Source: Lingula anatina (taxonomy: Eukaryota; Animalia; Brachiopoda). Taken from it: a stretch of DNA of 64,000 nucleotides. Where the stretch lies: positions 10,974,001 to 11,038,000 of the forward strand of contig CM120645.1 in the NCBI GenBank assembly GCA_051362555.1, given 5' to 3'. The notes beneath the pieces are model-generated. The model saw only the letters and a program-made list of their open reading frames with translations. It was not told the origin of the DNA and made no database searches. Both the position numbers and the translations under genes were made by a program. Every line of letters begins with the position of its first letter. Position 1 is the stretch's first letter. Positions 17,255 to 45,496 of this stretch are shown here, piece after piece.

Positions 17255-17558
17255 GGAAGGGCAATACAGACCAAGACTCAGTTCTCATACCTAGATCGAT
17301 CTAACAGGATTGATCTATCCATCTCCTAGGGGATTCTCGCTAAATTGCAATTAACTTTCTAGTAAGCAGCTTAGATGTCTGTCACGCCTACTGAAGCTGA
17401 TAGAAGGTAATTAACTATCGTTTAGCAGCTTTAGTAGGCATGCCAGACATCTAAGCCGTTGAAGCTGAATGCAATTTAGCGAGAAACCCCTTGCAGATCC
17501 TGATCCTGTTGGATCGATCTAGGTATGGGAACCCAGTCTTGGTTTGTATTGCCCTTCC
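17255..17558. mobile_element. MITE family 3, long imperfect foldback
   Basis: GGAAGGGCAATACAGACCAAGACT..CATACCTAGATCGATC mirrored by GATCGATCTAGGTATG..AGTCTTGGTTTGTATTGCCCTTCC. Related copies at ~15130, ~34240 and ~61560. Confidence 0.75.
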
Positions 17559-20500
17559 ATCAATGCTATAAGCAGACCTGTTTACAACCAACTTGGGCTG
17601 ACTTAACCCTGTGTCTGTGTCTAAATGCAGGTGTAGTAAGTAACGCCTATCCATCTCCACTGGAAACGGGCCTCAAAAGCAGGCTTTACAGAGAACGAAC
17701 TATCGTTGGGAATGAGCCTATAGTAAGCAATATACAGAAGTGATAAGTAATATACATGGAATTCTATCTGTTGTGCAAGAGAATGTTACTATGAAGACCT
17801 TTTGAGAAAACAAAAATAAAAATATCCATGGATAAACTGTCTTTTATTCATTTCTGCACTACACTTGAGATCCTGCCATTATTCCCGATTTCCTCCAAAT
17901 CCTGCAAAATCTTGTTTGATTAAATTAAATACTAAGACACATGACTGAAGGCTATCTCGGATGATTAACAAAAACGTATCCATCCACAATAAATCAATCT
18001 ACACGATGACATTTTTCCTTTTCAGGAAAATAAAAATCAAGGAAGTCTGTTTCAGTGCATATAAGAGATTAAAGATGCTACTCCAAGACTGGTTTTTGTT
18101 CTGGCAAAATGATCATCACCATGCCTGCATATTAAGAATGCATGTGAAAAGGCTTTCAGAATCCAAACAAGATCAATACAGGTATCCTGGATGCAGACAT
18201 TTGTCTACAACTGACAGTACACAAGTCTTCTATACTGCAGTGTTTTATAACCTGATATGTGCTCAGCAATAGATCACTCCAACTTTACTGAACACAAACA
18301 CTTGTGCCACGATATTGGAGCTTGCCTTCATTTAACACACCATGCTATCAGATGTGAGAATGATGACACATGGGTAAGAATGATGGCACTGGGGTAAAAT
18401 GTCTCACTAGAAGAGTCAGAATAACAAGGTGGGGTGACACTTGCCCCCCCCCCCCTTATCCCCCGTCCTCGTGTCCTCCAAAAAATACATGCACACGCTT
18501 TCACTCATCTACACATACACTCATTCACATATTTGCACATGCATCTTCTCATGCATACACACACATGCATACTTGTGCGAAGAGAGAGAGAGAGTGAGAG
18601 TAAGAGAGAGACACCCCCCCCCCCACCACCACCAAAATCCATGCCTTTGCCAAACTGCCTGCAGAAAGTGCACATGCTCCATTAGGTGTCCTGAAAGAGA
18701 AGCTCTGATACTGTTATCAACAAACAGTCCTAAGAAGGTCACATCTGTCGGAACACTGGCTGATTTCTAATTTCACTGACTACGAAAAAAGGCTGATGTG
18801 TCTGTACAAACATTCACATAACGTCAGACTCAGCCTCAGGCCAGTGGAAGACAACCCATGTGGAAGCTTGCATAAGCCATGCCTTAAAGTACTAGTATGC
18901 CAGCTCTATACATTGTATTTTCCTAATATATCTTGCTAAACTGATTGCTAAGAGGTGACACTCAATTGCATTACTAACTACTTAACCAAATAAATATTCA
19001 ATATGTAAAAATACAATAATAAGGAGTTTATGTATTAAGTTACACATAACAGCAAATAGAACATGAAGAAAAATATGCATGATGAAAAAGAGAGCAAAGA
19101 AGTATTGAACAAAACAGGTGTGAGCCTAGTGGTGCTCCACCTAATATTGTGTTTGGAAAGTTTGCAAAAAGTGACCTGATCACGAAGATTTACAAATGAA
19201 ATGAATGAAACTATTACAAAATGGGTTATTTTTTTTCTTCTTTTTTAAGTGTGAAATATCTATTGTTACGCCTCAATACAAGGTCTCTTAGCATCTGCTA
19301 GAGCAAAGCAATAAGCAATCTACATGTGAATCCAGTAAAAATACAACTGGCAAACTTCTTGGCTTCTAAACCAGAGTTAAGAAAGTCAAGGCCCTGCAGT
19401 TCAGTGCACAAAGCCCCCCTAGTCCCGGGAACACTTGTTCCACGACCTGAACTTGTTTATCCTACACAAACCCCCATTATCCTCAGTGTATTACCAGAGA
19501 AAACAAGATGGCTGCAGCCTATTGATCTGAGCAGAATGATCAGGTGTTAGTAGGGCTTGGACAAACACTGCACTGGCACACAAATGAACAGTAAATAATC
19601 CAACTATCATCGATTTCTGGTCCAGAATCCAATAAGCAAACTTTTGTCTCGTCTTTGTTTCCTGAAAAACACTCAACTCAACCGATGTCCCCAGAATTCT
19701 CACACCCGGTCATCAATACTTTTTTGTTTCTTTCGAAAAAATCAGGCCCAAGGCCAATACTGCAGTGCTGATCAGAATATATATTAGTTTGAAACACACT
19801 CCTATTGGTAGAAATAAACCCTCAAGTACTAGTAAGCACTGTTGGACTTAAAAACTGCACAATGCAACCTCTTTCAGTCAGTTGCAACCCCCCTCCACCC
19901 CCCAAAAAAAACACCCATGATCTACCCCACCCCTACCTTTACCAACCACCATTCTCATAGCTAAGATTCTATCCTTATTATTACTTTCCTTGTTATATAG
20001 TGCTACACTGTATAGAATACAAAGCAATGCATCTTAACAGATTAATAAATCTATAAAATACTAGAGTTCTGTCTTGGCTGATTACATCTTATTCCATTAA
20101 AAAAATGCCTCATTCCTCCATCCTACTTTATTTACAGCTACAACTGTCTCCTTCCCCCTGTTACATGTATATATATTCTTCCCATCAAATGGATTAGTAA
20201 CACTCTTAACTTGTAGCTTTCCCCAAAAAAGCATGCTGTACAATCATTGCTTAAGTTCTCCACATGCTCTGCTGTGTGACTTATGCTTGCTGTTGAATCT
20301 TTGACGTTTTGATCACGTAATGCATGTTAGTATTTGTTCTTTCACGTAAGGATCAGGTCGAAATTGCATGTTAACACATGTTAGGGAATACTTGCAGTGA
20401 CCCTCTGCAGTATTATTCCCATCTGTAAGATTATTTTTATTTCTAGAGATCTTAGTCATGTCTCTTTATATACCACAAAAGAGAAAAAAAAAATGTTACA

Positions 20501-21712: not shown

Positions 21713-22492
21713 ATGTGAACCTAGCCCCACAGTAAAAACTGATCACATCATCTGCAAATCGATGTGTCTGGTTTCTCAGTGAAAAAAAGCTAATATAATC
21801 ACATATCGAAAATTGAATTAAACAAAATGACTCAGCTAAGTGATAACCACATTAAACAATGCAACCTACACATCCTATAATGTCAATTTTGCCTCTGATA
21901 AAACCACGAAATGAGAACATGTCAGAAACTTACAGAGCATCCTCCTTCCTCACTCCATATCTTCTCCAGCATGAGTGATGGAGGGAAAGCACTCAGTACA
22001 TCATGGTCGTGATGAAGATGTCTTGTCTTATCTAAAACACTACTGTTTTCAAACATGAAACAGTGCGGTGATTCAACAGGTACAAGTAATGTTTCCTGTT
22101 AATGAGATCCCAAAGACTTCCTCCCCACCACAACATTCACACACTAACTGATAACATGAAACAATGTTTGTTATGTCAGTACAGGAGGGATTAGTAATTC
22201 ACCAACATCTAAATTGACTGACTATGACAACATCATTGATTTAATCTCTTCAGCAACTCTTTACACACTTTGACTTAATGAAATGTTTGAAAAATCTTTA
22301 TTTCATATACATATTTATTTATTGATTTGCTTATTTATTTATCTATCTACTACTATGTTTCTTTACTTATTTAACTATAATGATTTATTGAATTGTTTAT
22401 TTATTCTGATATTCATCTATTTACTTATCTATTAATCAATCTATTTTGTCAATAATCAACATATGGTGGAAGTGAGCTGCATGCATTGCCTA

Positions 22493-22678
22493 TGAGTGTA
22501 TACAGAACAGTGGACTTACAGATCCGCAGATCAAATATAGCTACCCACTAAAAAGCTTGTCGCTTAATTCCTGGTTGGATACTGAATAAATTCCCTGTGG
22601 GGATTAAGCAACAAGCATTCAAATGGGTTGGCCATATATGATCCCCAGATCTGTTTGTCCACTGTTCTGAATGTGCTC
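22493..22678. mobile_element. Degenerate MITE, family 1
   Basis: CAGAACAGTGGAC..ACAGATC / GATCTGT..GTCCACTGTTCTG inverted arms. Confidence 0.55.
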
Positions 22679-22885
22679 TATAAATAAGAAGTTAAGCTAG
22701 CAATACCCAAGCATCTCCCAGATGATCTAATGTCATTGGTAGTGGTCAGAAGTTTGATAGCACCCCCTCCCCACCCCCCCTTGATATTTACCAAAAAGAG
22801 ATGATCTAATTATGTCACTGAGCGTGATTAGGGAGATAAAGCTAGAACACCCCCCCCCCTACATCTACCAGAAGGAGATGACTTA

Positions 22886-23142
22886 GGCTTCGTTCACATG
22901 CAATGTCTATTTTCTAAATTCTATTTTCTATTTGCGGCATGTCTTATGATCACGGTCTGTGCACTGAATATCCCGCCGCGTAATTACTGGCAGCGCGAGC
23001 CAGTTACTATAAGTTACTATAAGTAACTGGCTCGCGCTGCCAGTAATTACGCGGCGGGATATTCAGTGCACAGACCGTGATCATAAGATAGCGCAAATAG
23101 AAAATAGAATTTAGAAAATAGACATTGCATGTGAACGAAGCC
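22886..23142. mobile_element. Near-perfect 257-bp palindromic (foldback) MITE, Harbinger/Tourist-like
   Basis: ~120-bp arms starting GGCTTCGTTCACATGCAATG and ending CATTGCATGTGAACGAAGCC, with a TTA duplication on both sides and only a few mismatches. Confidence 0.85.
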
Positions 23143-26100
23143 TTAATCATTTCATTGGTAGTGGTAATAAGTTAACTAGCATGGCCACAGTATCTTCTAC
23201 AAGGAATAGATTTTATCATGCCACCGAGAGTGGTTAGAGAAGTCCGTCTAGAGGAGATGTAATCACACAATAGAGAGTGGTTACCCTTAACCCGGTGTTC
23301 ACTGTTGGCCCTGTTAATACTGTAGGTTCCACATATCTTCCTATCTTTCACATCAGCAATCTGAACCCAAGGTCATCATTTATATATATATATATATATA
23401 TATATATGTTTGAAGTGTGTGTCATCCTTACCAACACTGCACTATCTGTTCTCTATACTACACTGTGCTCACTTCAGCTTACAGTAATTATTCACAAATT
23501 TCAAAAAGGAACTCACTTCTTTAAATACTGCATCTTTTCAAGATAATGTCTTTCTGGCATGAACGTTCCAAAATCATTTTTTTAGCTGTTACTAATTAAA
23601 TAAAACGTGGTTTCTCTTACATTGAAAGGATCTGTCCATTTAGTTCAAAATTAGAGAGTAATTACCGTAGGTCCCTCTCCCAAGTGGCTGAGTTGATTGG
23701 ATTACTTGAACTGAGTCGTCTGTCTGCTTGGCTATCTGTCTGTTAGCATGTATATTTTATTCACATCAGCAGATGTAGTTGGAAACAAGGGGCAGTTTCA
23801 CCAAAGAATTTTAGACCAAATATTGGTCTTAGAAACATTTAGATGAACATTTTGGTCTACTTTTGTTTAAGATGTAATAGACCATTAAGTTTAAGTATGT
23901 TTTGGTCTGAAATAATAGCCATGTCTTTCTTGTTATAAAACAGGTGCTGTGAATAATATATTATCAGACTACTGATTGATCTGTGATCAATGCAGACTAA
24001 AAGTTTAGACTGGTTTCTGAACTAAAGTTATTTCAAATGTGAAAATCACCCCAGAACACTATAGAAGGGTCAGGTCTAGATATATATACAGGATACAGGC
24101 CCTGGATTATTTTTTAAACCTTAAAAGTAGAATTGTTCACTCTAGCCTGTCCAGAAAGAGAGCACAGTCACACTCTCAGACCCACACATATCGGCAAATC
24201 TACTCAAACTACATGACATTGAAATATCAAGCTTTAATCTACCTGATTTTAGACTATGACTTCAGTCACATATCCTCCTGGGGTCCTTATACATAATGTA
24301 AAATCCAGGCAGATGAGAAAAAAATACTTAAATTTTCCAGAGGATCTGTATTTGTAAGTAGAAGCAAGCAAACAAATTCTCTGATTTATGAAGTTAATCA
24401 TAAGACAGTGACTCATTTGGAAAAAAAATTACTTGTACTAGCACTTATTTTCCACCATACATAAAGCACACCTGACCATCCACTTATCACAAATAAAATC
24501 AAAACAGTATGGTTTAGGTCATGTGTCCAGAGATGCACTCTTATTTGCCAGTCACCTCAAGAAAGAATGGTTTCTAGCCCAAACTGAACTTCAGACAATT
24601 AGAAGATAATAATAAGAATAATGATGTTATTTTTTGCAGTATCACGCATATGAACTGAAATAGGGTCATTGCAGAGTATTTTTGTCTGATGGAGTATTTT
24701 ATTAGCTTCATTTGTAAGATGTTTGCCACATTCATACTATGTTCTCCTTGAAAAGAGTTTTTATGAACTATAACCATTTTTTTTATCAAGGATAAAGGAT
24801 AGAGAAAAACAGCTGGAGAATGGCTATAGATCAGAAAAAAATTCCAGTTCTCTCTTGTCACAGTACCAAATATAATTCATCATATATTTTATGGCAGCAG
24901 GATGCTGCAAGGTCAATAAGACAACATTTATCATTGCAATAGACCCCCAGATGTTACAACACGTACGCACTTTTAAATTATTTGCTATGGCTGAGTTTTG
25001 ACAACCAATTTGTCTTTACACTTTCATAACATTGAAACTGTGACACTTAAATCCTACTAGTACATGGAAAAACTTCAGAAGACCTTTCAAAAATGTTTTC
25101 AATTTTGTATTTCAAAACAGCATTTTAACCAAGTAATGCTGCTGTATGAAATCATATTATGGTTGTACTGTCAGGGATTTTTTTATTATTTTAGATATAT
25201 ATTCTGCTAGGTGCATGGCGATTTTTATAGAATGAATCACAAAAGAATAAGTCATAATATCATTTTTGGTTTTGTTCTTGTTTAGTAGTTAATGTACATT
25301 TAGCAACTGAGTAATTTCACTATAACATAAATGTCTTTATCTAAGGAGCTCTGAATTTAAGATCATATCACCATAAGGGGGATCTAGTATCCACCAGGCT
25401 GTTTCACTTTCTCACTAATTACCACAAATAACAAGCACTTATCCAAGGCCAGAACACAATACACTTAACTGTCCAGTTTTAAGAGATGTTATCATTCAAT
25501 ACCAGATATATACAGATCGCATGTAAGTGCTTCATTTGGACTATATATCCTGGTTTAGGAACAGACGAGAGACCAAGGCTGCATTCAGAACTATTAAATA
25601 AATATATCTCCAGTAATTAAGTCAGCAAGATAGACACTTGATTGCAATAGTCCGTGCTAGACTCTTCTATTGCATTGCCCCATGCAGATGGTCTAATAAG
25701 GGTAATGATCTGCACAAGCAGCAATTGAGGATACGAATAAGGATCGACTTCTTCAAGTTCATAAACTATAAAAACATCTTTGGTAAAGCGTTCTCGAACG
25801 TGATTTTTGGCAGATAGAGCACACCATGCCATGATAAGCAAACATTCACCCAAACTAAAATAGACCAGCAATTTGATATATACTAGTACCTATGCTGCCA
25901 GAACAATATGACATAAATTTGAAACCTATGCACATTGTAGGCGTATTGTGATTTATATGGGCTAGACCTGCTGCCTGTATTGCTACAATTGATGATTTAT
26001 TCCTGATTAATATTCACAGACTACGAATACACGAGATACAGTATAACAACACCTACATACTTTGACACATTTGTATATGTATGTATAATCATGTGCATGT

Positions 26101-26502
26101 TGTCTGACTCTTAACAAATTGACACTCACATAAAAAAAAAATACACACGCGAATGCACATAACATCAAAGACAAGTGATTCTGCTTAGAAGCCTTTCACA
26201 ACCTACACAACCAAACCTATGTTTTTCAATAAAAAATCTTTGTGAACAGAATTTTACTTTTATACATGTTACTCCCTTGCATCATTATTTCCAGTACTAT
26301 ATTTACATGGGCAAGTAACAGAGTGGGGGAGTAACAATTCAAGATCTCGAGTATCTATGCCATAGAGTATCAATGCAGGCAATATTATTTTTTAATAATG
26401 TGGGAACATGAAGAGATGTCTTTCACCAGTGGCTCCATTGATTACCACTGCAGTCTTCTACAAATAAATAAAAAAAATGATCATTTGACACTCAATATGT
26501 TA

Positions 26503-26676
26503 AGCCACATTCAGGACAGTGGACTAACCACGGGTCAAATATAGGGACATAAAAAACGCTTGACATCTAATCCCCTTACACAATAGACACTGAATAGATT
26601 CCCTACGGGGAAGTATTCAAGTGGGTCAGCCTTATTTGTCCCTCGGACTACTTAGTCCACTGTTCTGAATGTGGCC
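26503..26676. mobile_element. MITE family 1 copy
   Basis: GCCACATTCAG.ACAGTGGACTAA / TTAGTCCACTGTTCTGAATGTGGC, flanked by TTA. Confidence 0.7.
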
Positions 26677-27434
26677 TTAGACCCTTGCAGAGTTGCCATG
26701 ACAGTGCTTAATAAATATACACAGATCTACTGTCTACCGTCTAATTCACAACAGAATAATTATAACACGCGTAAGCAATAGAAGTCTGTTCTCAAAAATA
26801 AATAAAGTGCATGTACATTTGTTGAGTTGGCATCTCTGCACTTGTCAGATTTAGACTATCTATAATGTGTTTGCCTTGGCAAAGTTCTTACTAATGCTAG
26901 TTCTTTAATTTCCGGGAAAATATTTTTAGTGGCCTATAGCAAAATAAAGTTCGTTTTTGTATGGAACTGCTATTCTATTGATTTTTATTGTCGGGCAATG
27001 CATGTGCAAAGTTCTATCATTGCATGTCATGTTACTTTTAGTTTTCCAAAATGTTATCAAAAATAAATAAAAAACCAAACGAGGCTGCAGGAAATTTGTT
27101 AAAAATATGTAACCTTGCACCAATAACATTAATTACAGCGTCATGTAAAATTAACCTCACTAAATCACATACACATGGTATTCAATGGTTAACTCCAAAG
27201 CGCAGCTTTATAATGTAAAAACACCGGTGAGACACACTTCAGATACCAACTTGACTTCGTCGCTGTCGATCCTTTTGCTTTGGCAAGAGAGAGAGTGACG
27301 ATAAACACAACTCACTCGTTATTTCTTGTAGCGTTTCCCCTTTAGACTCGCTAATTGGAAAGAACATAAATATGTCAAATGCAAATTTGCCTTAAAATGT
27401 TTGAGTGAGGAGAAAGTTGACTGTCTTTACTTAC

Positions 27435-27791: not shown

Positions 27792-30700
27792 ATGCACCCA
27801 GGATTCCCAATAGCAGCGGTTTTTCTAGGTTGCTGTAGCAACGTAGTCGTCTTGGAATATCTTGTCAGGTTAGTTTACAAAGGTGTATACTGAAGGATGA
27901 ATCATGAAAAATATTAAGAATAAATTTTGTTTTTATAAATTACAGAGAACTTGTTGTGCAAAACTTAAATTGAAAGACTTTAAATGAAAAGTCTTCAGTA
28001 GACACGATTTCTACTTAAGATAGGATTCATGATTGTCATCTTTTAAAAATTAGTTTTGTATGACTACATAAAACCCAGTATTTAGCATGTAGCCAGTTTA
28101 GGTGAAAATTCGTTTACTAGCACAACTGTGTAAGGTACGTGTATCTGACATGGGTCACACTAATATCTGCAACACTGTGCAGTACACTTGAGAAAACGAC
28201 TCTTGGTGTGAGAAAACATGTGAAATGGTCATTTACAAGAAAATAGGGTGTAAAAGCGAAACATATTATTACAAGGTTATATTTTTATCCAACTTGACAA
28301 AATTCTGTGATTTGTTTATAAACTGTCAGGTCATCCGCCATATTGACCACTCAAGAAGATATAGGAAGTGGCTCTTCTAAGTTCTTTGTAATATAGCAAT
28401 GAGCTGACATGAATCATCCTCATTTGTTGAATTTGATCAACAACAGTTCTTAAAATCAGACTATTATCCTGTGAATGACCATTTTTGTATTTACCTGCAT
28501 CTGGAGTTGATTTCTCTAGTGATATCAACAGAGCCATAAGTAAGGTGAGATCCATCTGCTTGTCTACTAGTCATGGCACAGTGAAAACATACACACACTA
28601 TTGCGAGGGCAATGACCATGACAGACAAACTTCTAAATGTGAGAAGAACCACAGAGATCATTTCCTGCAAGCTGGCCATTTCTTTTTAACTATCCACTTC
28701 AACTTCCATTGTATGTACACTATTCTGCACAGTATGTTGCTTCTTGGCTAGTAAAGATTTGCATCATTATTTGAGTTACCTCACCCATTCAGAAGTCCGC
28801 ATTTGGTTTTCTTTTTATGGGTACTTAATTTTATGGCAGACAATAACTGGAAGACAAGCAAGCAAATCTAACCTTACTCTTGTTCAGGGTGTTAGCCAGC
28901 ACACCAAGTGTCTTTTTCAGGACATGGAATATAAAATATAACATGTTGTATTAGCCCAATTAACATGGCTTCAGTGGAAAATTTTCATCATTTTTGTTGT
29001 GTTCTGTTCCAGGGAGTTTCCAGGCAGTGGGAATATTGTCACATTTTCTCAGTTTCTGTTTATTGCATTGGAAGGGTTTATATTTCATGCTGATTTTGGG
29101 CGAAGAAAGCCTGTTGTCCCTATAAGGCAAGTATTTATATGGAAGAGTTTTAAAGGCTGTTTGAATATTCCTTAAAAGCACTTACAAATATGTTATAAAC
29201 TTAACAGTGAAAAATTGTCTTATGATATACAAGTATTGGATTGTGTAATTATAGATCCTTAACTATAAATTTCACATTGCTATTGTCAAAAGAATCTTAA
29301 TACTGAAAACAGCAAAGAAAACTCCACTCTATAATTTTTAAGTCAAATTGATGACAAATTGCCTAAAAATAATAAAAGTAAAAATATTTGATGCTGATTT
29401 TGTTAAGAGTTTTAATTTTATTTAATTGTTTTAATATCTGCCTCCCATTTTGATTCATCAGTAGCCATAATTAGTCTATTGCAACTGTATTGTACAAGTA
29501 CAATTGTAGAACGGAGATATTTGTAAATGCCTTTCATTTGCTGTTTGTTTATCTAAGTGGAAAAAAAAAAAACGATGAAGTAAACCATATCACAATGCTA
29601 TATTGATTTAATACTTTAAAAGATTAATGTATTTCTATTTTTTCCTAGACATTATGTCTTTTTGACCATGATGTATCTTTGTGCTGTTGCTCTGCAAAAC
29701 GTACTGCTCTTTTTACAAGTGTCCATCCCATTACAAATTCTCATTAGATCGGTGAGTCGAGCAGTGAAAAGAAGGGGTCACTTTCGTCCCTGGATGTTGC
29801 CCATTCTGTTGTTGTTGTTGTGCAGTTTATTTTGCCTGCTGTAGTATTGCAAGCATTACAGAAGTGAATTGGGTACATTGAAATTTATTAACTAGTCCGT
29901 TTATACACCTCCACCCCACCCACCCCCCTTTCCACCCTCACACAAAATCTGGCGATCTCATTTGACACTCCAGTTTCGAAAATATTTTACTGTTCATTTT
30001 TACCACTGAAAATTTATCCTTATCACATTTTGTATCAATTGAAAATTTCACCTTTGTAAAATTGTCCAAGTCACTTCTGTTTGTAGTGACAACTTATACC
30101 AAAATTTGTACTGTTTACAAGACACTAAACGAAATCCAAAGCCATTGCACTTGTATTGAGAAACAGTATGTTTTCCAAAGCAAGAGCAAATTGTTATTCA
30201 CAAGAATTGGGAAAAAAATTTATCCAGATCATTCAAGTATGCCATAACATGGTTTTTATGATTTATTTAAAGCTAGCCAAATTGTGACATTCAAAATATT
30301 TAAATATATCATTTTTGTGAAAAACATTTATTAAAATGATGTTGTAGACAATGTTCTTACTATATTTATATTCTTGGCTTGCAGAAAACTTGAATTATTA
30401 ACCCCACATTTCAGTTTTTATGGTTTAATTTCCGTTGCTTTATAACAAATGCTTTTCTTTCTATTTATTTTCTAATATTTTTTCCATATATGCAGACATT
30501 ATGTTGTCATGGTGACAATTTTCTTTGTGGTACAAGTTGTGAATAACCTAGTCTTAGGCTTCAACATCTCCATGCCATTACACATGATTTTCCGTTCGGT
30601 AAGTTTTGCCACTCAAAGCAGGGGCTGTGTTCACATGGGATGCCAAATGCTGCACACTCAGCTTCAGTTAGCCATCTTCCAGACATAATCCAACACCATT

Positions 30701-33700
30701 ACCAGACATGTTTCACCAAAGTGGCTGAAATGTGCTTTAAAAATGCCTTTATTTTTTATTTTTTATTTTTATTTTTTGTAACTCGGAGCTTTTAACTCTT
30801 CAGAGAAGTGCCATGTCTGTTTTATTCTAAAACTGGTTTTTTTATTTTTTTTATTTTTTTTTTAATCCTCTGGACCACTGTTTATAATTTTATATTTGCT
30901 ATGACAGTAACAGCATGCTGCTAATCGTCTAGCCAGTTAGGTGCAATTGAAATTTTTAGGGCACAATTTTAGTCCATTATTTTGGCTGGTTTGGTGAAAT
31001 GTACTTGACAAATGGTGTGTAATGATCTGGTGAACTTGTTGAACATTGCAATCCAGTCTTGACTATCGCACAGCTTAGGCAGGCATTGTGAGGTGTCCAG
31101 ACAGTGAAAGTTATGTCTTTGGTAGCATTGCTTATAACAAAATAATATCATTATTTGTTTCTTTGCTGGCAGACATTATGTTGTTATGGTGACAATATTC
31201 TTTATGGTCCAAGTTGTGAATAATCTGACCTATGGGTTCCATGTGTCTGTGCCATTGCACATGATATTCAGATCGGTAAGTGGTTGGGGTTGCAGAAGTA
31301 GCAGAAAAAAAACAAGTGTTAATTAACAATGTGTTATCAGTGTGAAATAGCTTTATAAAAAATATTCAGCAATAGCCATTTTCTAGGAATATACTTCCCA
31401 GAAGCCATTTTCTGATCTTTATAGAAAGGAGTCAAATCTTCGTCTCTGTTTGCCCTTTTACAAATATCATTTTTGGCATGTCTCTGCCGTGGGAGTGAAG
31501 TCTGGTTGCACATGTTTGCTAGTTTTTTTTCTTATTTTTTTAAAACTCTGCTTGATACCCGTGAAAAAAAGGGCTTACTTGGGGCTGTGTTTGTTGTTGG
31601 CATTGTTGCATGAACAATATTTGATCCTTAAAAATTTTTTAAGATGATTTTTTTTTAATTTAACATATTTAATAAAAACATTTTACTCACATTTGAAATC
31701 AGTTTATCTTTTCTTTTATATTATATTTAACTTTAAGTATATAAAAATACCTGATATTTAATATAGTTGTATGTAATTGTAGACAGTCAATACTAATTTT
31801 ATTTTTAAAATAGCTGTTATAACAATCTGGGCTTGTTCTAGCATGATAAAATGCCAAAATATTTCATTCTTTTCATTTTATTATTACGTGATGTTTGTTT
31901 TATCATACTTTTTACTATCAATTTGTTGTTCATGGAAAAAGTGATTTGGCAAATATTTTGAACCACACGGATTAAAGTGTAAAAACATGCTAGATTAAGT
32001 CCTGCTTTTTTACACCTTTAGAGTGCTAGAAATTCACATATGGTTTTTTTTTTTTTTACTTCCAGGGAAGTCTTATAGCAAATTTATTTTTAGGGGTTTT
32101 AATTCTCAAAAAAAGGTGGGTATTTCAAGATCAGGATTTCAAAGATCAATCAACTGATATTTTTTTTAATGTGATCAAGCGTTTTTTGCCTTTTGGTATT
32201 TAGCATATTAACAGTTTTCTTAAAAACATGTAGATTTTATTTATTTTACCAAAATTGAATTTCAGCATTCAGCATTCATTAAAAAAACTAATGAATTACA
32301 AAAAAAAAAGTGATTGAATAACTTTGTTATTTGAATGTATGTTTTGTTTATTCCAGCTATAAACTATCCAAATATTTATCAGTGATTATGATCACAATTG
32401 GTATAGCCATATGCACAATAGCTTCAGCCAAGAAAGTGGTAAGAGTTGTTTTCATTTTTGCCTCACTTCACATTGGTTATGCTTTATATATATTTGTTTG
32501 TTCTTGACAAACCACAAACCCAACTGGAATTGATTTAATTTCAGATTTAAACTTAATTTCTATATATAAGACTGAGGCAGGATAGGGATTTCCTAAAGAT
32601 TGTAAAAAAATATGGAAAGTGGCTGGATTTTGATATTTTTGTAGTGTCCAGGGAGTATTTGAGGGTAAATTCACAGAAAAGTGAGGATTTTTCTTTCCTT
32701 TTGCATCCCTCATTTCTGAGATGAGTTTAGTTTCATTTCATCCTGACTTAATAATTTGATGGGTTTTTTCGCCTCCAGAAATCAGAGCACCTTGACGACG
32801 GCAGCGATGGCATGTACGACCTGTTCATCTGGATAATTGGCATCAGTGGGCTGACCTTTGCCCTCCTCATGTCAGCCAGGATGGGCATTTACCAGGAAAC
32901 CATATATGCCAGGTTTGGAAAACACCCCAAGGAAGCTTTATTCTATAATGTACGTATTGCCAGTAGCTTGGAAGTAAGGCCCCATTCAGAATAGGGGACT
33001 AACTAGTCCAAGGGTCAAATATGGAGACCTACTACAAAGCTTGCCGTCTAATCCGCTAATACGCACTGAATAGATACTGTATCCACGTATTCAAGTGGAT
33101 CAACCATATTTGGTCCTCAGACTAGTTAGTCCCCTATTCTGAATGGGGCCTAACACATGCTTGAATATTTGAACATGAGACCCACTTCTGAATGTTTATA
33201 ACCCTTGACAAAAAAAAAGTGAAAAAAAAATCAAAATGATAAAAAGATAATGATCATTTTGATTAGTTTGCATGCAGCGTCATTTTGAAATTGGTTGTCT
33301 TTTCCTTGGAAATAGTTTTAGTTTGATGGCTGTAGACTGAGTGTGTTAAGTTATAGAGTAGCTTTTCATCAACAGTACTATTGCGGATGGTCTAACAATC
33401 TCTGAAAAAATTTTGTGGAAAATATAGCATAAAAAACGTCTAACATTTTTTATACCAAATGGTATTTGGGTCCGTAGATAATTAGATAGACCAACACATT
33501 AACAAAGTTCAGCAAAACGATAAATGAAATTTTATAATAATGTAAATTTTTTGATTGGTAATTTTTGACAGTGTCATTTCCTATTATTTCAGCATGCGCT
33601 TCCTCTACCAGCATTTCTCCTTCTTGGCAAAGATATATATAACCATGCTGTGCTCTTCACAGGTTCTGGTGAGTATAAAGAAAATGTTACAATGTTACTT

Positions 33701-34761
33701 TTTCAAAGGACAAAAATTCTTACAGATTAAGGTATTAGCAAATACTTGTATATATATTCAAGTGTTCTCTAAGGTCTACATACTTCATATTGGTTTTAAA
33801 ACAATTGAATTTGTGTGTAACTTAGGATTTTGGATCAATTTTATTTACTGTATTCATCTCAAAAGCATTTTATTTTTGTAGTATTAAATTACATAAAAAC
33901 TTTTTATCACATTTTATAATGTTTTGTGCAGATTCCATCTTCCCATTTCAGTGTCAGCTACATTTATAATGATCTTTTGAGACACCTAAACATGTCTTGT
34001 TGATGGGTTTTTACATCTTTATTTTCAGAACCCATAGATGTTCCTTACCTGCCAGCTATACCAAGGATGTGGTTCTTCTTGGCTCTAAACGTACTAACAC
34101 AATATCCTTTACATTCAGTCCATGTTTTATATACAACCAGAGACGCCATCTTGGCTAGCAAAGGCCTTTACCATCTGAACCTGATCATGTAGTTGGGTCA
34201 CTCAGACAGCCTTGGTGTTTTAGACTGTGTTCACATAAACCCAGCGTACTAGCTGGATTGATCTAACTCTGCAGGGATTCTCGCTAAATTGCAGTCAGTG
34301 TAAGCGGCTAAATTGTCTGACACACCCCCTTGAGTAATTTAATCACCCCCTAGCAGCTTGAGTAGGCATGCCAGACATAAGCTGCTTACACTGAATGGAA
34401 TTCAGCCAGAATCCCAGCAGAGTTAGATTGATCAAAAAAAGTTAGCAGAAAAGTTGAAAAGCTTTAACTGTATCTTCATGTAGATTTAACCAGTCTTCTT
34501 CATATGAATATCCTTAACGATCTCAAGTATATATGCATCCGTGCGGTGTTCATTCTGACTACGGAGTGCCAGTCCCTGACCGTCACCCTGGTCGTCACTC
34601 TGCGGAAGTTCACCAGTCTCCTCTTCTCTATCATGTACTTCAAAAACCCTTTCACAGTCTACCACTGGGTAGGGACAGTGCTGGTCTTCACTGGGACCAT
34701 GTTATTTGTGGATATTTATAATATTTTGAAGAGTCTGCTTGGAAAGACTAAAGCTGAGTAG
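27792..34761 (+). CDS. SLC35B4: Nucleotide-sugar transporter SLC35B4 (UDP-xylose/UDP-GlcNAc transporter; Drosophila Efr-like), ~326 aa, 9 coding exons
   Basis: Exons: 27792-27868 (MHPGFPIAAVFLGCCSNVVVLEYLV), 29013-29126 (EFPGSGNIVTFSQFLFIALEGF), one of three exon-3 versions, 32066-32115 (GSLIANLFLGVLILKK), 32357-32438, 32779-32949 (ALLMSARMGIYQE..HPKEALFYN), 33593-33668 (HALPLP), 34029-34101, 34527-34761 (YICIRAVFILTTECQSLTVTLVVTLRKF). The total is 981 nt, in frame, and colinear with human SLC35B4 as I recall it. Confidence 0.93.
29649..29751 (+). CDS. SLC35B4: SLC35B4 mutually exclusive exon 3a (divergent)
   Basis: TTTCCTAG|ACATTAT...AGATCG|GTGAGT, 103 nt, encodes HYVFLTMMYLCAVALQNVLLFLQVSIPLQILIRS with no stop or indel. 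Confidence 0.8.
30496..30598 (+). CDS. SLC35B4: SLC35B4 mutually exclusive exon 3b (closest to canonical)
   Basis: TGCAG|ACATTAT...CGTTCG|GTAAGT, 103 nt, encodes HYVVMVTIFFVVQVVNNLVLGFNISMPLHMIFRS. Confidence 0.9.
31173..31275 (+). CDS. SLC35B4: SLC35B4 mutually exclusive exon 3c
   Basis: GGCAG|ACATTAT...AGATCG|GTAAGT, 103 nt, encodes HYVVMVTIFFMVQVVNNLTYGFHVSVPLHMIFRS. Confidence 0.88.
32978..33150. mobile_element. MITE family 1, cleanest copy, in SLC35B4 intron 6
   Basis: TAA|GGCCCCATTCAGAATAGGGGACTAACTAGTC ... GACTAGTTAGTCCCCTATTCTGAATGGGGCC|TAA: a perfect ~31-bp TIR with a TAA TSD. Confidence 0.88.
34102..34526 (+). other. U12-type (minor spliceosome) intron of SLC35B4 with apparent AT-AA termini
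   Basis: Donor ATATCCTTT, branch site TCCTTAAC at 34511-34518. The reading frame (T-Q-Y-I-C) requires CA|..CAA|G. Confidence 0.8.
34240..34434. mobile_element. MITE family 3 variant inside the U12 intron
   Basis: GATTGATCTAACTCTGCAGGGATTCT..CAGTGTAAGCGGC mirrored by GCTGCTTACACTG..AGAATCCCAGCAGAGTTAGATTGATC. Confidence 0.7.
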
Positions 34762-37280: not shown

Positions 37281-37949
37281 ATGTCTGCCGCGCTGTTCAG
37301 TCTGTGTGTTCTTCTGTTTTGTTTCGAAGAAGGTAAGGGGTGGGGGGCGGAGGGGTGGGGGAGGGGGGCTCTTTATTCCGTGTTTGACACATTCTGTAAC
37401 GTTGAATGACTGGGCGGAGAAGGTTGACGTTTGAAAATATATTTGAAATTTAATGCTATTTATCATTCGTTCACAAAAGTTGTAATTAAGAAATATATAA
37501 TCTATATGATTTAAATGTTGGCGTTTTAATGATTTTTTATTTTTATGTTTATTTCAAAGTAACCGCCATCGCCATTGCTTCTTGCAAAATTTCCACGAAC
37601 CTTAACATGGACTTGAGGAATGCATTGGCTAAGCAATTTGTTCTTCTGTTTTATATATTTAATTACTTTTTTATTCTATCTAACTGTGAACAATGATGGT
37701 GAGTCGGGTCCCTTTTGTTTTAGGCCTAAGCCAGACCCCCCTTGAGACAGGTACCCGGTACGTGACCGGGGCCATACAGACACCGGCGCCCGTAGGGAAA
37801 GGTACCTACGTGGCCAGCCTCTGCAACGCCTTCAAGGGTAAAGATGTTGTTGTAAGCGTAGTGCTCCAGAGAAACCCAGATTGGAACCCGACTTTCGGGG
37901 TGGTCAATTTCACGGTCACTACAGCACCAGTGGCTGGCAACGTGAGTGC

Positions 37950-37988
<39 letters not shown>

Positions 37989-39206
37989 TTGTCAATGGAT
38001 GAAAAGATCATGTGAGAGAAAGCACTGAAATTGATGAGCAAATCCTTTCTTTTTTCGAATTATTATGACCAATTCGTTTAGCAAGTCAATTTAATTAACG
38101 TTTCTCTAATTGAAACGCATGCTCTATGAGAATATCTCTCTCTCTCTCTCTCTCTCTCGCACACAAACGAGCGCATGAGCACTTATAATTTTTTTCTTTA
38201 TGAATGTATTTATACAGCTGGAAGCGAGTGTACTTTGCCAAAACTGGCCTGACGCCAATGCCAAACCAGCTCCGAACTGCACAGTGAAAAACTGGAGCGC
38301 CACAAGCGACCTCTATGTGAACACAGTGGCTTCAAATGTCGGCGATGTATCTTTTACCGTTATTGTGGAGTTTGTAAAAGTTGCATCAGATTCGGATTTA
38401 GAAAAGGCAAGGTCAATTCAACATTCGCCACAGACACTTAAAAAGTTATACATTTCCACTTAAAGTGGTCCAAGTACTTGTAATGGTAAAAAGTTCCTAT
38501 TGAAGACATAGGCTTAGCATGTAGACAATAAACATGAACTTGCGGTGCTGATAACTTTGTGATAAAATTTTAATGTTGTTCGCTATCTTATTTATTTTGA
38601 ACAATATGAATGTAAATTTGAGTTTGTCTCCACAATCCTCTCTTCAAGTGAACTGATAAACTAGAACAATGGACAACTTCTGACTTTTAGATGTCGATGA
38701 CACAGATCTGCCATAGCGTACATATTTATTTTATTTATTAGATAAATCCTCCAAAGTCCATGAACCTGAAGAGCTATATTGGTGCGGGGCTCGTGTATCT
38801 GGACCAGGTTGTGCACATAGACAAACCTTTCCAAGTCGTATACGGCCAGAGTCTCATCCTCGAAATCACCTTCTGCCCAAACCCGCAGACCACCAAAAAC
38901 TACCGCATCGATAGCACAATATTTGGTATGGGGCCTGACGCCGCGTTTGCGCAGTACGTCTGTAAGATTTTGCCATGCAACGATCATCAGGACGCCATAG
39001 CCAGTAACCCTTATCAGCTGCCACTCAATTCTCTTTCCGTGTCCACTACAACGGCCGACTTGACCACTCTCTACATCGCCGTGGTCGGTTGGGGCGGGGA
39101 GTACGACCCCAGCGTCCACGCGTACGTGGGCTCTTTCGTATATGGAGCGTCACTGTCGGTTCAACCAGCACACAAAGAAAAGGAGTTTAGATTCATTCCG
39201 TATTGA
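37281..39206 (+). CDS. Uncharacterised secreted protein, copy 1 (~307 aa, 4 exons)
   Basis: Exons 37281-37332 (signal peptide MSAALFSLCVLLFCFEEG), 37724-37941, 38218-38406 (GC donor AAG|GCAAGG) and 38742-39206. The total is 924 nt, open, and conserved in copy 2. Confidence 0.8.
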
Positions 39207-41021
39207 AACGATTAGATCTACATATCCGAAATGAAAGTGATAAGACAAATTTGTTTGAAAAAGGACTTCATCTTTTTAATCTGCTAATTTTTTGGTTCCT
39301 TATAAAATTGAAGTAGTTCGATTGAAGATATCTTCATCTTGGATTTATATCTGTTTGTAGATGAATCTTTGTTGTGTGTTACTATGATGTGACCGCCAGG
39401 CGTTGTACAAAATCAAAAATATATTTCAACACAGCTTCTGAAGTTTGTGACCTAAACTGCAAATAATTTTTAGCAAAATAACGATGACATAGAAAAGACA
39501 AACCTGTTGTAATTTTCTTCTTTAAAACTCATACTGATAGCTTAAAAGTATCTTAAGTAAGCTGATTTGATGCACATAACCTAAAGAATCTAACTGCCTG
39601 ATTTTCAATTCCTGTAACTCATAATTAAATCACACCAATAAATCGATGTTTGATATGCAATTGTGCAGTTTCATATATTTTTCAAAGGATATCGCGGTAT
39701 CAAAAAATGTTTCCCACAGTCCACGCTTCCAGTCTACCTCTTTCTTCAGGTGCGAGAAAAAAGAGGTTTCGACTCAAAAACTTTCGTATCAATAACATTA
39801 TGAATCATCAAAAAATCATCCTCCAAAAACGAGCAATATCGAAATTGAGCCATAACTGGACGATGGCAATGGCTGATTCACCAAGCGCAATACTAGCTGA
39901 GGACATTTGGAAGATGTCAAAATTCTGTAATAAATGTTTTCCTCAATATATGGCAGGTTCCCAACTTTGTGACACTGGGCTTTTACAAAAATAAATAAAT
40001 AAATAAATAAAGAGAGGGTAAACAATGACCAGTTTATGTGCAGGTGTTACTATCATGTAGTCAGGCCATCAATTTCCAAACAATATTTATATTTGTTTGT
40101 GCTGATGAAGCTGGAGACTTTCCAATTATATAAAATGACTTATCAGATGTACATCACGATTTTGATGTTGTGATAATGTGCACTGTGCCCTGCCCTCAGT
40201 TGTAATTGTGACTAGAGGTGTTCATTCTTCTTCATATTGATGACACATATATGCCATAGCCTTTATATTATCTTCATTAGATAAATCCTCCTAAGTCCAA
40301 ACTTCATAAGTTACACAGGTGCATGTTCGTTCAGTGGCGCTGCAGAAGCGGCGAAACGAAGATTGTGTTTTTTTATCGGAGATTGTGATAGAACAGCTGT
40401 CGCAACATTGTAAGCTTTGTACTAATATCTCTATTTGAGTCTTACTTTTGGACATAATGTTTTAATTGTTATCTCGTAATTGGCTTTACCAAGACCAGTG
40501 TTTCATCCTTGCCTTGTTTTCTATTTTTTTGATTGGTGAACACGAAAAAAATATGCTCACACTTGTCGATAAAACAGCAGTTTTAAGACGTGTATTTTTC
40601 TCAAAGGACAAGACAGAAGACGAAGTTTGTATTATGAAAAAGTATATTTGAACTTAAATAAATTAATACTGAAAAAAATACCACTTTATACACAAGTATC
40701 CTGAAAGTAAGAAGACCTTTATAAACGACTTATTTCGAAGTATTTAGGTCAAATACAATCAGACACGAAACTTCTTATCATTTCCTAGACATGGCAAAGA
40801 GCGACTGACAAAATATTTGAATCACATTAAATGAAACTAGTGCTTTGATTGATAAGGTTGGGAGAACTGATACCATGATACATCCGTAACCTTCAGACTG
40901 ATCGAACTTGTGTCAATATAGGAGTGACGGCATGTCCTTGTCTCACGTATTAATATATATATATTCAGTCCCTGCAACTTTCATTGTACTAAATGTTGTA
41001 AGGGGTCCTTGAAAAGACAAC

Positions 41022-41102
41022 ATGTCTGCCGCGCTGTTTAGTCTGTGTGTTCTGTTTTGTTTCGGAGAAGGTAAGGGGTTGGTGGGTGAATGGGGAACGG
41101 GA

Positions 41103-41179
<77 letters not shown>

Positions 41180-43186
41180 TAACTTGATGATTTAAATGTT
41201 GGTATTTTAATCAGGGTCTGTTCCAGGACTATTTGAAGGGGGATGGGTCAACGGATGCGAAAAGTTTTGGTATTTAAGCGGGCGAACAGTGCCATTTGGC
41301 ACGGTTTAGAACTTTTTTTCAACCATTCAAAATTCTAATTTCGAGAGGGAACCATTGGTGTGAATTTTTTTTTAGAAATCGAAGGGGGGTCTGGACCCTC
41401 CTGACACCCCCTCTAAATCCACCACTGTAAATGATTGTTTTATTATGTTTATTTGAAATTAACCGTCACGCCGTCACGTTAACCGTTATTGTTTAATGCA
41501 AAATTATCACGGACCTTAACATGGACTTTAGGCATGTATTGGCTAAGCAATTTGTTCGTCTGTTTTATATATTTAATTACCATTTTTATTCTTTATAACT
41601 CTGAACGATGATAGTGAGTTGGGTCCCTTTTGTTTAAGGCTTAAGCCAGACCCCCATTGAGACAGGTACCCGGTACGTGACCGGGGCCATACAGACAACA
41701 AAACCCGTAGGGAAAGGTACCTACGTGGCCAGCCTCTGCGACGCCTTCAAAGGTAAAGATGTCGTTGTCAGCGTAGTGCTCCAGAGAAACCCAGAATGGA
41801 ACCCGACTTTCGGGGTGGTCAATTTCACGGTCACTACAGCACCAGTGGCTGGCAACGTGAGTGCTTTTCCATTTACTTATTTATTTATTTATTTATTTAT
41901 TTTCAATGGATTCAGTTCCTCAGCTTTATAAAAAGATAATGTGCCAGAAAGCACTGAAATTGATGAGCAAATCCCTGTTTTTTCGGATTGTCTTTCTTGA
42001 CCACGTGGTTCACATTATCTCTCTGTTAAGCAAGTTAAATTAATGAAAGTTTGTCTAATTTAAACGCATACTTTTTGAGAATCACTCTCTCTTTCTCTCT
42101 TTCTCTCTCTCTCGCTCTTTCTCTCTCATGCACTCACGCGCGCACGAGCACCTATTATCTTCTTTTGAATGCATTTATACATATGTGGATGTCCAGCTGG
42201 AAGCGAGTGTACTTTGCCAAAACTGGCCTGACGCCAATGCCAATCCAGCTCCAAACTGCACGGTGAGAAACTGGGTCGCCACAAGCGACCTTTATGTGAA
42301 CACAGTGGCTTCAGATGTCGGGGATATATCTTTTACCGTTATTGTGGAGTTTGTAAAAGCTGCATCAGATTCGGATTTAGAAAAGGCAAGGTCAATTCAA
42401 CATTCGTCACAGACACTTAAAAAGTTATATATTTCCACTTAAAGTGGTCCAAGTTCTTGTTATGATGAAAAGTTCCTATTGAAGACATAGGCTTAGCATG
42501 TAGACAATAAAAATGCACTTGCAATGCCGATAACTTTGTGATAAAATTATAATGTTGTTCGCTATCTTATTTATTTTGAACAATCTTAATGACATTTTGA
42601 ATTCTTCTCCAACATCTTCTCTTTCAAGTACACTGATAAACTAGAACAATGGATGACTGCTGACTTTTAGATGTCGATGACACAGATCTGCCATAGCGTA
42701 CATATTTATTTTATTTATTAGATAAATCCTCCAAAGTCCATGAACCTGAAAAGCTATATAGATGCGGGGCTCGTGTATCTGGACCAGGTGGTGCATATAG
42801 ACAAACCTTTCCATGTCGTATATGGCCAAACTGTCATTCTCGCAATCACCTTCTGCCCAAACCCGCAGACCACCAAGAACTACCGCATCGACAGCACCAT
42901 ATTTGGTATCGGGCCTAACGCCGCGTTTGCGCAGTACGTCTGTAAGATTATGCCATGCAACGATCATCAGGACGCCATCGCCAGTAACCCTTTTCAGTTG
43001 CCACTCAATTCTCTTTCCGTGTCCACTACAACGGCCGACTTGACCACTCTCTACATCGCCGTGGTCGGTTGGGGCGGGGAGTACGACCCCAGCGTCGGCA
43101 CATACGTGGGCTCTTTCGTATATGGAGCGTCACTGGCGGTTCAATCACCACACAAAGAAAAGGAGTTTAGATTCATTCCGTATTAA
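41022..43186 (+). CDS. Uncharacterised secreted protein, copy 2 (~306 aa, 4 exons)
   Basis: Exons 41022-41070, 41639-41856, 42197-42385 and 42722-43186. Same phases as copy 1, a 3-nt indel in the signal peptide, and no stops. Confidence 0.78.
41107..41178. repeat. (TA)n microsatellite
   Basis: Direct reading. It replaces part of the copy-1 intron 1 sequence. Another long (TA)n lies at 61262-61342. Confidence 0.9.
41212..41427. mobile_element. ~216-bp insertion with CAG...CTG ends (non-autonomous DNA element)
   Basis: Present in intron 1 of copy 2 but absent at the equivalent site in copy 1 (TTTTAAT|GATT at ~37530). A similar CAG/TAG..CCTG element lies at ~20637-20817. Confidence 0.6.
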
Positions 43187-45496
43187 AACGATTAGACCTA
43201 CATACCTGAAATGAAAGTGATAAGACCAATTATTTGAATAAGAACTTTATCTTTTTAATCCGCTAATTATTTGGTTGTTTAAAAATATTGAAGTAGTTCG
43301 ATTGAAGTTGTCTTGGACATGGATTTCTATTTGTTTTTAGATGATTCTCGGTAACTATGATGTGGCAGCAAGGCGTAGTACAAAATTACACATATTTCAG
43401 CACAGCTTCTGAAGTTTGGGGCCCGATTGGGAAATGATTTTATCATAATAATGATGACATAGAAAAGAGAAACCTGTTGTAATTTTCTTCTTTAAAACTG
43501 ATAGCTTATGAGTACGTAAAGTAAGCTGGTTTGATGCATAAAACCTAAAAATTTTACTGCTTGTTTTTCAAGAACTTTGACGCATAAATAAATCACACTA
43601 ATACTTTAAATATCCATGTTTTATGTGCAATTGTGCAGTTTCATATATTTTTCAAAGGATATCACGGTATCAAAAAAAGGCTTCCCATAGCCCACTCCTC
43701 CGATCTACCTCTTTTCTTCCGGTGCAAAAAATAGTATGAGGATTCGACTCGAAAACTTCCGTGTCAATATCATTACGCTAAGGTGTTTGACGAAAAAAAA
43801 CAAAACAAAACGATCATCTCCCAAAAACACGCAATATTAGCGAAATTAAGCAATGACCGGACAATCGAAATGGCTGCGCAGTACTACCTGAGGAGATTTG
43901 GAAGCTGTCAGAATTTTGTAATAAATGTTTTTTCTCAATATACGTAAACTATGGCAGGTTCCCAACTTTGTGACACGAGGCTTTTACAAAAATAAATAAA
44001 TAAATTAGCAAACAAATAAATAAATAATGTACATGTTTTGCTATCATGTTATCATGCTTTCAATTTTCAAACAATATTTATATTCATTTGTGCTGATCCA
44101 CCTGGAGGCTTTCCAATTATATAAAATGACTTATCAGCTGTACATCATGATTTCGATGTTGATAATGTGCACTGTGCCCTGCCCTCAATTGTAATTGTGA
44201 GAAGAGGTTTTCATTCTTCTACATATTGATGGCACGCATATGTCATAGCCTATATATTGTCTTCATTAGATAAATCCTCTAAAGTCCAAACTTCAAAAGT
44301 TACATAGATCTATGCGTGTTCGGTCAGTGGCGCTGCAGTAGCAGAGACACGAAGATTGCGTTTTGTTTTTATCGGAGATTGTGATAGAACAGCTGTCGCA
44401 ACATTTTGATTTTGTACAAATATCTATATGTTTTACTTTTGGACATTATTTTTAAATTCTTATCTCTTAATTGGCTTTACCAAGACCAGTGTACCATCCT
44501 TGACTTGTTTTCTATTTTCATGATTGGGGAAATGAAAAAAAATATGCTCACACTTGTCGATAAAACAGCAGTTTTAAGACGTGTATTTTTCTTAAAGGAC
44601 AAGACAGAAGACGAAGTTTGTATTATGAAAAAGTATATTTGAACTTAAATAAATTAATATTGAAAAAAATACCACTTTATACACTAGTATCCTGAAAGTA
44701 TGGAGACCTTTATAAACGACTTATTTCGAACCTTTAAGACGTGTATTTTTCTCAAAGGATAAGACAGAAGACGAAGTTTGTATTATGAAAAAGTATACTA
44801 AAACTTAAATAAATTAATACTGAAAAAAATACCACTTGATACACAAGTATCCTGAAAGTATGAAGACCTTTATAAACGACTTATTTCGAAGTATTTAGGT
44901 CAAATATAATCAGTCACGAAACATTTTATCACTTCCGAGACATAGAAAAGAGACACTGACATGACATAGATTTGAATCACATTAAATGAAACTAGTGCTT
45001 ATTGGCCAGGCTAGTAAAAATTCTCTTTGATGAAAGGTTTTCTATAATTCTCAACGTCTTTGAACCTATCATAGAACAGAGCCAATACCTCCTTTTTGAG
45101 GCATGCAACGTCTACTCGGTATGTCAATTTACACAGATTTGACACCTTGCTACTGGCACACCCTACAGTGGCAGTGGTGTTGATATATAATTGTGTCACT
45201 TTAAAGGATTGCAACTGCCCCATCACGCAAACAGCAATTTGACAAGAAACCATTCATCTCGTTACCTTAAACGTTTTTGCGTACCGCTTATTTTCTTGAT
45301 GCTTGACCTCACAAGGATAATTTTTGAAATAAAATGCCAAAGCTACGAACTGCAGATTTCTTACGATTGCTGCTTAGGAGTTTATCTTTGATTTTTGACT
45401 TCGTCAACAATAGATATATGCAATTTGCAGCAGTTAAGGCAACCCTGGTGTATAAATACGACAAGAATGACATGAATGAAAACCTCATTAGACAAA

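Follow-up and report, generated by a model that had tools for sequence, protein, structure and literature searches.

A predicted intronic stem between either/or exons of SLC35B4 in the brachiopod Lingula anatina, and its possible part in a switch of competing RNA pairings

The 64,000-nt stretch of DNA analysed here (the window, numbered from its first letter) comes from the brachiopod Lingula anatina (contig CM120645.1 of assembly GCA_051362555.1, positions 10,974,001 to 11,038,000 of the forward strand) and contains the gene SLC35B4, identified by a last exon that matches XP_013385439.1 at 100%. Its product is a uridine diphosphate (UDP)-xylose/UDP-N-acetylglucosamine (UDP-GlcNAc) transporter (Pfam PF08449). 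The cluster of XP_013385439.1 contains two members, isoforms X1 and X2, and the exon model drawn from joints in RNA reads equals both RefSeq entries letter for letter, X1 with exon 3b and X2 with exon 3c, confirming the exon and intron limits given in a first-pass annotation of this DNA made from the letters alone. In the 3.1 kb that run from exon 2 to exon 4 stand three tandem copies of exon 3 (3a, 3b and 3c; Table 1), all of the same length and phase. Exons 3b and 3c differ at 21 of 102 nt; 3a differs from the other two at 47-48 and retains only 29% amino-acid identity. The donor that feeds this cluster from exon 2 (29127-29132) is GC, not GT. Our subject is the intron between 3b and 3c, the stem predicted within it, and the extent to which that stem might help to govern the choice between the two exons.

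Either/or use of 3b and 3c, proposed in the first-pass annotation, is borne out by the RNA reads. The evidence comes from four of nine listed runs (X12, X15, X18 and X14, the order kept below), covering 6-25% of each run's reads, with a listing threshold of 3 reads per joint, so that absences hold among the joints listed. Reads joining exon 2 to 3b number 17/2/4/16 and those joining 3b to exon 4 number 32/1/6/29, making 3b the default exon, while 3c is joined to exon 2 (0/0/6/0) and to exon 4 (0/0/6/0) in X18, where it accounts for about half. Each exon is joined to both flanks and, among the joints listed, not to the other: no 3b-3c joint, no joint from exon 2 directly to 4 and no joint of 3a is among those listed in the four runs. 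Because each copy is 103 nt long, any double inclusion shifts the frame and meets a stop well ahead of the last junction, 504 nt before it whichever two exons are included; triple inclusion stops 607 nt and zero inclusion 439 nt before it. The frameshift means that the missing 3b-3c reads cannot separate a block to splicing from the decay of its products.

Exon 3a has an open frame and intact AG/GT signals and is unannotated in RefSeq; the open frame is weak proof of function because 40-48% of neutral simulations remain stop-free, and a protein search with it, itself a weak one, returned no match. At a position that is His in 193 of 194 matched relatives (46 of the 240 proteins fetched gave no pattern match), 3a carries Gln; the column aligns with Q113 of SLC35B1, described as a cavity-closing residue (PMC12267056). 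The X18 allele of exon 3c carries five changes at 31221-31255, three of which alter amino acids (Tyr to Phe, Val to Met, Pro to Thr), and the Pro so changed is kept in 194 of 194 matched relatives; exon 3c may be drifting or specialising. Each of 19 metagenome loci holds one exon 3 copy, none of the 240 fetched proteins holds two, and a search with the exon 3 region found no second brachiopod by name among the best 120 of 182 matches.

Near its 3' end, the intron between 3b and 3c has a branch-like motif that the first-pass annotation had singled out and that is a fair candidate: its A31137 lies 35 nt before the acceptor AG and within a 45-nt AG-free zone, in an intron that has 29 AG dinucleotides. 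Exon 3b is preceded by a comparable motif, at 30438-30450. Elsewhere in the gene, the last intron (34102-34526; 31/1/14/29 joint reads) has AT...AA ends, and we take its donor and branch motif to be of the minor-spliceosome (U12) type.

Upstream of this motif, the same annotation had described a single long stem extending between the 3b donor and the 3c branch point. All seven of its complementary blocks are present and able to pair on paper, among them a 14-bp block (30731-44/30952-65) with two G-U pairs, and the inner part is predicted to be stable; the outer pairs, which a steric model needs, fail, and only an inner stem of ~50 pairs, hereafter the core, exceeds chance. Paired against each other, the two halves of the intron reach -116.9 kcal/mol, compared with -93.9±6.5 in shuffles, none of 150 of which did as well, and with -95.9±6.5 under local shuffling (1 of 150), an excess for which the core (30679-30749 with 30948-31030) is responsible. 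Two helices of the core score highest, 30693-700/31011-18 and 30708-20/30990-31002, with a predicted helix probability (p) of 0.80-0.96 under four energy sets; the 14-bp block has only 0.28-0.66 because another register competes. The neighbouring block 30721-30/30967-77 can pair, albeit with one bulge and as a minor register (p ~0.25 vs 0.7 for 30722-32/30978-88), and the outer part of the 3' arm has an alternative partner in the 3' half of exon 3b (30560-30611, -39.3). The halves of the core loop show no excess of pairing (80 of 400 shuffles). Comparing the folding energy of the whole intron with shuffles, the check that the annotation itself had proposed, came out against its stem: the minimum free energy is -131.5 (z 0.22; 56 of 100 shuffles equal it). 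Unpaired U tracts dilute that comparison, and the half-against-half test is the fairer one. Across the cluster, the duplexes of rank 3, 4, 5 and 6 are reached by 9, 9, 2 and 3 of 351 shuffles, an excess of duplexes of middling strength. Rfam 15 gave no match at gathering score and two weak matches outside the intron (E 1.5 and 4.3).

When the fold is computed in context (30440-32115, with the next intron included, under the same four energy sets), the core persists and both of its flanks are predicted to find partners beyond exon 3c, the 5' flank in helix set H6 and the 3' flank in helix set H3 (p 0.62-0.98; Table 1). Against the whole next intron, the 3' flank reaches -63.4 vs -50.5±4.0 in shuffles, 1 of 80 of which matches it. 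Before these partners exist, the predicted partner of 31032-31044 is the 3b donor region and that of 31106-31116 the end of exon 3b, and in this early fold the 3b donor and the 3c branch lie 37 steps apart. Folds of the growing transcript switch between 31540 and 31650, and the path to the exon 4 branch then measures 80 steps from the 3b donor (linear 1437) and 186 from the 3c donor (linear 760). The deletion allele of X18 keeps the core, H3 and H6 in its predicted fold. Pairwise shuffle tests of H1-H6 (0-1 of 300) concerned pairs chosen after a scan and are not counted as evidence. Separately from the core, a 41-nt inverted match that fits 3a-specific sequence lies 430 nt downstream of that part of 3a and could mask it; the duplex is the best-scoring pair of the cluster, reached by 7 of 100 cluster-wide shuffles, and its p is not above 0.3 in the context fold. 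A weaker inverted match to exon 3b, at 30020-30052, is seen in the fold with p 0.74-0.78.

Table 1. Exons, splice signals and predicted pairing elements of the SLC35B4 exon 3 cluster (window coordinates)
Feature	Position	Strand	Basis or remark
Exon 2, constitutive	29013..29126	+	read joints; RefSeq X1/X2 model
Exon 3a, 103 nt, open frame, most diverged of the three copies	29649..29751	+	outside RefSeq X1/X2
Stretch complementary to exon 3a 29682-29722, possible 3a mask	30147..30188	+	-42.6 kcal/mol; 0/60 pairwise shuffles
Exon 3b, default exon, RefSeq X1	30496..30598	+	39 (exon 2 to 3b) and 68 (3b to exon 4) joint reads
3b donor region, pairs with 31032-31044 before the downstream intron exists	30594..30606	+	predicted
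Outer 5' blocks of the first-pass annotation	30607..30644	+	pairing with 31082-31127 unsupported
5' flank, pairing with 31572-31616 (H6)	30628..30673	+	p 0.57-0.93, predicted
5' arm of core stem	30679..30749	+	predicted folds, duplex shuffles
Core loop, U-rich tracts ~30746-30780 and ~30834-30865, several AG sites	30746..30944	+	sequence
3' arm of core stem	30948..31030	+	predicted folds; outer part has an alternative partner
Switch candidate, pairing with the 3b donor early or with 31446-31525 (H3)	31032..31104	+	predicted
Branch-like motif, candidate A31137	31130..31142	+	motif only, candidate
Exon 3c, RefSeq X2	31173..31275	+	6 (exon 2 to 3c) and 6 (3c to exon 4) joint reads, run X18 only
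Partner of the 3c donor (31270-31284)	31402..31420	+	p 0.72-0.98, predicted
Downstream partners (H3 31446-31525, H6 31572-31616), would loop out 3c	31446..31616	+	predicted
Exon 4, constitutive	32066..32115	+	read joints; RefSeq model

As the best reading of these results we tentatively favour a switch of competing pairings hinged on the core, with decay as its safety net, which would bring together three observations: that 3b and 3c are joined either/or, that the intron contains complementary arms, and that including two of the exons always shifts the frame. The core would fold first, acting as a hinge rather than as a steric clamp, and the stretch just outside it, 31032-31104, would first cover the 3b donor and the exon end as the 3c acceptor emerges. 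After ~400 nt beyond 3c, both flanks would change to their partners at 31446-31616, a rearrangement that would loop out 3c, pair the 3c donor and bring the 3b donor to ~80 steps from the exon 4 branch; with 3c looped out and the 3b donor so placed, 3b would become the default. Exon 3c would be chosen if the early state lasts or if the downstream pairs are kept from forming by a protein; double-inclusion errors would be cleared by nonsense-mediated decay. A more ambitious form of the model, which we consider rather unlikely as a whole, is a timed RNA switch in which the hinge stem keeps the 3b donor paired and within ~37 steps of the 3c branch while the 3c acceptor emerges, a structure-made block to 3b-3c joining, and in which a downstream flip of the flanks ~400 nt later releases that donor and puts 3c into a loop; exon 3a, with its Gln at the SLC35B1 Q113 position, would be silenced by another inverted copy, and the fold would thereby select among variants of the transporter pore.

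The two arms of the core differ in what can be said of their origin. Near their starts, the introns that follow 3b and 3c (30662-30872 and 31364-31550, respectively) are paralogous (0 of 200 shuffles; 10 of 200 when the U tracts are left out), so the 5' arm predates the duplication. No paralogue of the 3' arm was found in the other three introns (75, 179 and 159 of 200 shuffles), and its match to the 5'-arm paralogue that lies beyond 3c is not significant (27 of 300); the duplicated-arm model of PMC6071210 was tried on this comparison and is not shown by it. The first-pass annotation had held that the stem is not a miniature inverted-repeat transposable element (MITE), and a young MITE is indeed unlikely: the arms match at 54 of 88 columns, short of what MITE terminal repeats require, neither stem boundary has a target-site duplication, the arms have no copy elsewhere in the window, and no foreign read pile-up covers 30732-30995, unlike the inverted-repeat element at 32974-33154. 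The latter, in intron 6, is MITE-like, with 51-bp arms at 90% and many reads from other copies, and a second repeat lies at ~34230-34430.

Several results weigh against the switch. All of its pairings are predictions and their shuffle statistics are modest: the single matching shuffle in 80 for H3 belongs to one of six tests, the 5' flank (H6) stands at chance level against the whole next intron (36 of 80), and the covering of the 3b donor varies with the energy set (p 0.83, 0.59, 0.13 and 0.22), is equalled in 1 of 22 shuffles and persists in 6 of 13 trials with a scrambled core. Nor is the core unusual for the surrounding DNA, given that, after correction for composition, a deviation as strong occurs in 16 of 635 window tiles (~12 loci), that the top duplex reaches -46.5 in 16 and -55 in 13 of 20 other 2.9-kb tiles, and that, when the 2.9-kb cluster is searched as a whole, the alignment score of the core is reached by 12 of 100 local shuffles and the sum of the top five duplexes by 29 of 351. 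The transcribed strand is not preferred, either in G-U share (0.67 vs 0.67 in shuffles) or in z (antisense -5.4 vs sense -6.4). On the side of splicing, 3c was seen in one of the four runs only, with six reads per joint; 3b, as the nearer exon, is favoured anyway; and nonsense-mediated decay alone could be enough for the exclusivity and the absent 3b-3c reads. A close rival, which may quite possibly be the right one, treats the stem as incidental, such as the decayed remains of an old inverted repeat, and leaves exon choice to splice-site strength and RNA-binding proteins, with decay removing the double inclusions. It can point to the abundance of such duplexes nearby, to the missing strand asymmetry, to the whole-intron z of 0.22, to the U-rich tracts as candidate protein sites, and to the stops 439-607 nt before the last junction in every combination except inclusion of one exon. 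Human either/or clusters have lengths not divisible by three in 60% of cases (PMC5740500), and exon 3 of Drosophila Rdl is described as using neither steric nor pairing control (PMC13762713). An incidental stem is less easily squared with the excess of mid-strength duplexes, or with arms that have no copy elsewhere in the window, no foreign read pile-up and no target-site duplication. In the human study, moreover, no more than 22% of the frameshifting clusters had joining reads, and its authors argue for tighter control (PMC5740500).

The mechanism originally proposed, in which the outermost block (30607-30620/31114-31127) leaves an effective intron of ~20 nt on which U1 and U2 cannot bind together, is not supported and appears improbable. 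It is true that the best duplex between the intron halves spans donor to branch, that the outermost block can form 12 pairs (with bulges, -10.2 kcal/mol), that a rod carries a penalty of only 7 kcal/mol when the intron is folded by itself, and that modelling of the yeast A complex leaves no room for linkers shorter than 42 nt (PMC12350175). The first 32 nt of the intron against the 33 nt before the branch are matched by 12 of 1000 shuffles, a raw figure owed in part to pairing of the donor with the branch motif: it becomes 100 of 2000 with donor and branch fixed and 245 of 2000 with both left out. Pairing between the two flanks of the core is no better than expected by chance (74 of 500). For a transcript that stops at 31200, the outer block has p 0.00, 0.01, 0.26 and 0.02, its best case being the Andronescu 2007 energies (donor-branch pairing 0.20); in growing transcripts it remains at 0.00 under default energies, and once the transcript reaches 31650 it is 0.00 under all four sets. 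The ATGCC and TCACA blocks have p 0.00 throughout, and TCACA loses three of its five letters in the allele of X18 (5 of 5 reads), the only run in which 3c joints are listed. Imposing every block on the fold carries a penalty of 10.7 kcal/mol for the isolated intron and 17 once exons are added, and with exons the rod lies 13-17 kcal/mol above the optimum. The 3b donor and A31137 are 538 nt apart in linear sequence; with the core as the only stem, 187-213 nt remain, much as in the well-spliced 242-nt intron 4 and far above the steric limit, put at ~50 nt (PMC5740500, PMC7969005). In full context the path measures 149-154 steps and is 42 or fewer in 1-2 of 300 samples; in the transcript ending at 31200, 298 of 300 samples are that short, via other pairs that cover the donor itself. 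Path length was dropped as a test for want of specificity: constitutive introns 4, 5 and 7 show the short path in 89, 52 and 84% of samples, three of eight other introns of the gene in over half, and 8 of 14 flank-shuffled controls in 75% or more, even though among the five introns longer than 500 nt it appears only in the 3b-3c intron (84% vs 0-7%); some control introns were one base off, which leaves the outcome unaffected, and the ends of an RNA tend to be close in any fold (PMC6193969). A permanent clamp would, moreover, hinder the main joint, 3b to 4. Still less probable, we think, is that the core serves splicing fidelity only, by hiding U tracts and cryptic AGs or by giving a distant branch close to the 3b donor access to the 3c acceptor, in the manner of OGDH, whose distant branch points lie 25-41 nt from the donor (PMC7969005). 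The U tracts of the loop are followed by AG, and the sequence at 30633, 35 nt from the start of the intron, matches YTNAY; against this, the loop stays single-stranded, so that its sequence is displayed rather than hidden, the intron has 29 AGs and an AG-free zone of only 45 nt, and the candidate at 30633 was rejected on finding that the X18 allele without A30633 still splices exon 2 to 3c.

Among systems already described, alpha-tropomyosin and Dscam exon 17 are reportedly steric either/or exons with a close branch point, and the Lingula cluster is not in this linear class. The tandem duplicated exons 4a/4b of OGDH likewise go unjoined to each other, but exons of that steric type have a linear donor-branch distance below ~50 nt (PMC7969005), which in Lingula is more than tenfold longer and is predicted to stay at ~150 steps or more when folded in full context. 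Yeast zipper stems such as that of RPS17B resemble the core in shortening an intron between donor and branch; they leave 42-85 nt and promote splicing (Rangan et al., PMC12350175), whereas the Lingula core leaves far more. The competing-pairing switch would work like two pairing systems. In human ATE1, exons 7a/7b are two tandem either/or exons under the pairings R1R3/R3R4, in which one element has two alternative partners, each state hides splice signals, and the outcome is sensitive to transcription timing (Kalinina et al., PMC7797038), all of which would have predicted counterparts in Lingula. The ATE1 pairings are conserved, proven by compensatory mutants and hide two acceptors (PMC7797038), while those of Lingula are predicted only, and would cover donors and loop out 3c, with a fixed inner stem alongside. 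In exon 4 of Drosophila serpent and exons 4/9 of Dscam, an upstream selector and a downstream docking site pair across the distal exon, loop it out and bring the proximal donor near the next exon; those elements are short, conserved and tested (Yue et al. 2016, PMC4691838), in contrast to the two longer, imperfect helices predicted to flank a third stem within the Lingula intron, and no docking site common to 3a, 3b and 3c was found in the Lingula cluster. Enforcement by frameshift and nonsense-mediated decay (PMC5740500, PMC6071210) is matched by the 103-nt Lingula exons, with their early stops after double, triple or zero inclusion; it accounts for the missing products and not for the choice between exons.

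Beyond SLC35B4, the window holds further strong inverted repeats at ~8200-8770, 9200-9870, 17100-17770, 22300-23370, 26300-26870 and 28100-28670, probably mobile elements. A multi-exon gene at ~37690-43190 (+) occurs in two tandem copies with near-identical open frames, and one gene on the minus strand likewise has two tandem copies, at ~45500-48400 and 54770-57540, whose motifs we take to be those of a multicopper oxidase. Broken frames at ~52600-53500 (+) resemble a Tc1/mariner transposase. A short tandem duplication of ~160 nt in three copies lies at ~2520-3240, and 6445-6711 is a likely exon of a minus-strand gene.

Control of either/or exons by RNA pairing has been documented mainly in arthropods and in a few vertebrate genes, and the candidate brachiopod case is compact enough for the whole of exons 2-4 to fit in a minigene. 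Both isoforms are already in RefSeq, and among titles and abstract openings we found no paper on either/or exons of SLC35B4 or on the Lingula cluster, nor one reporting a fold-made steric block between either/or exons; such a block would be a new mechanism, if true, and the present evidence does not support it. Since exon 3 covers part of the transport cavity, the choice between its copies may alter how the transporter handles its substrates.

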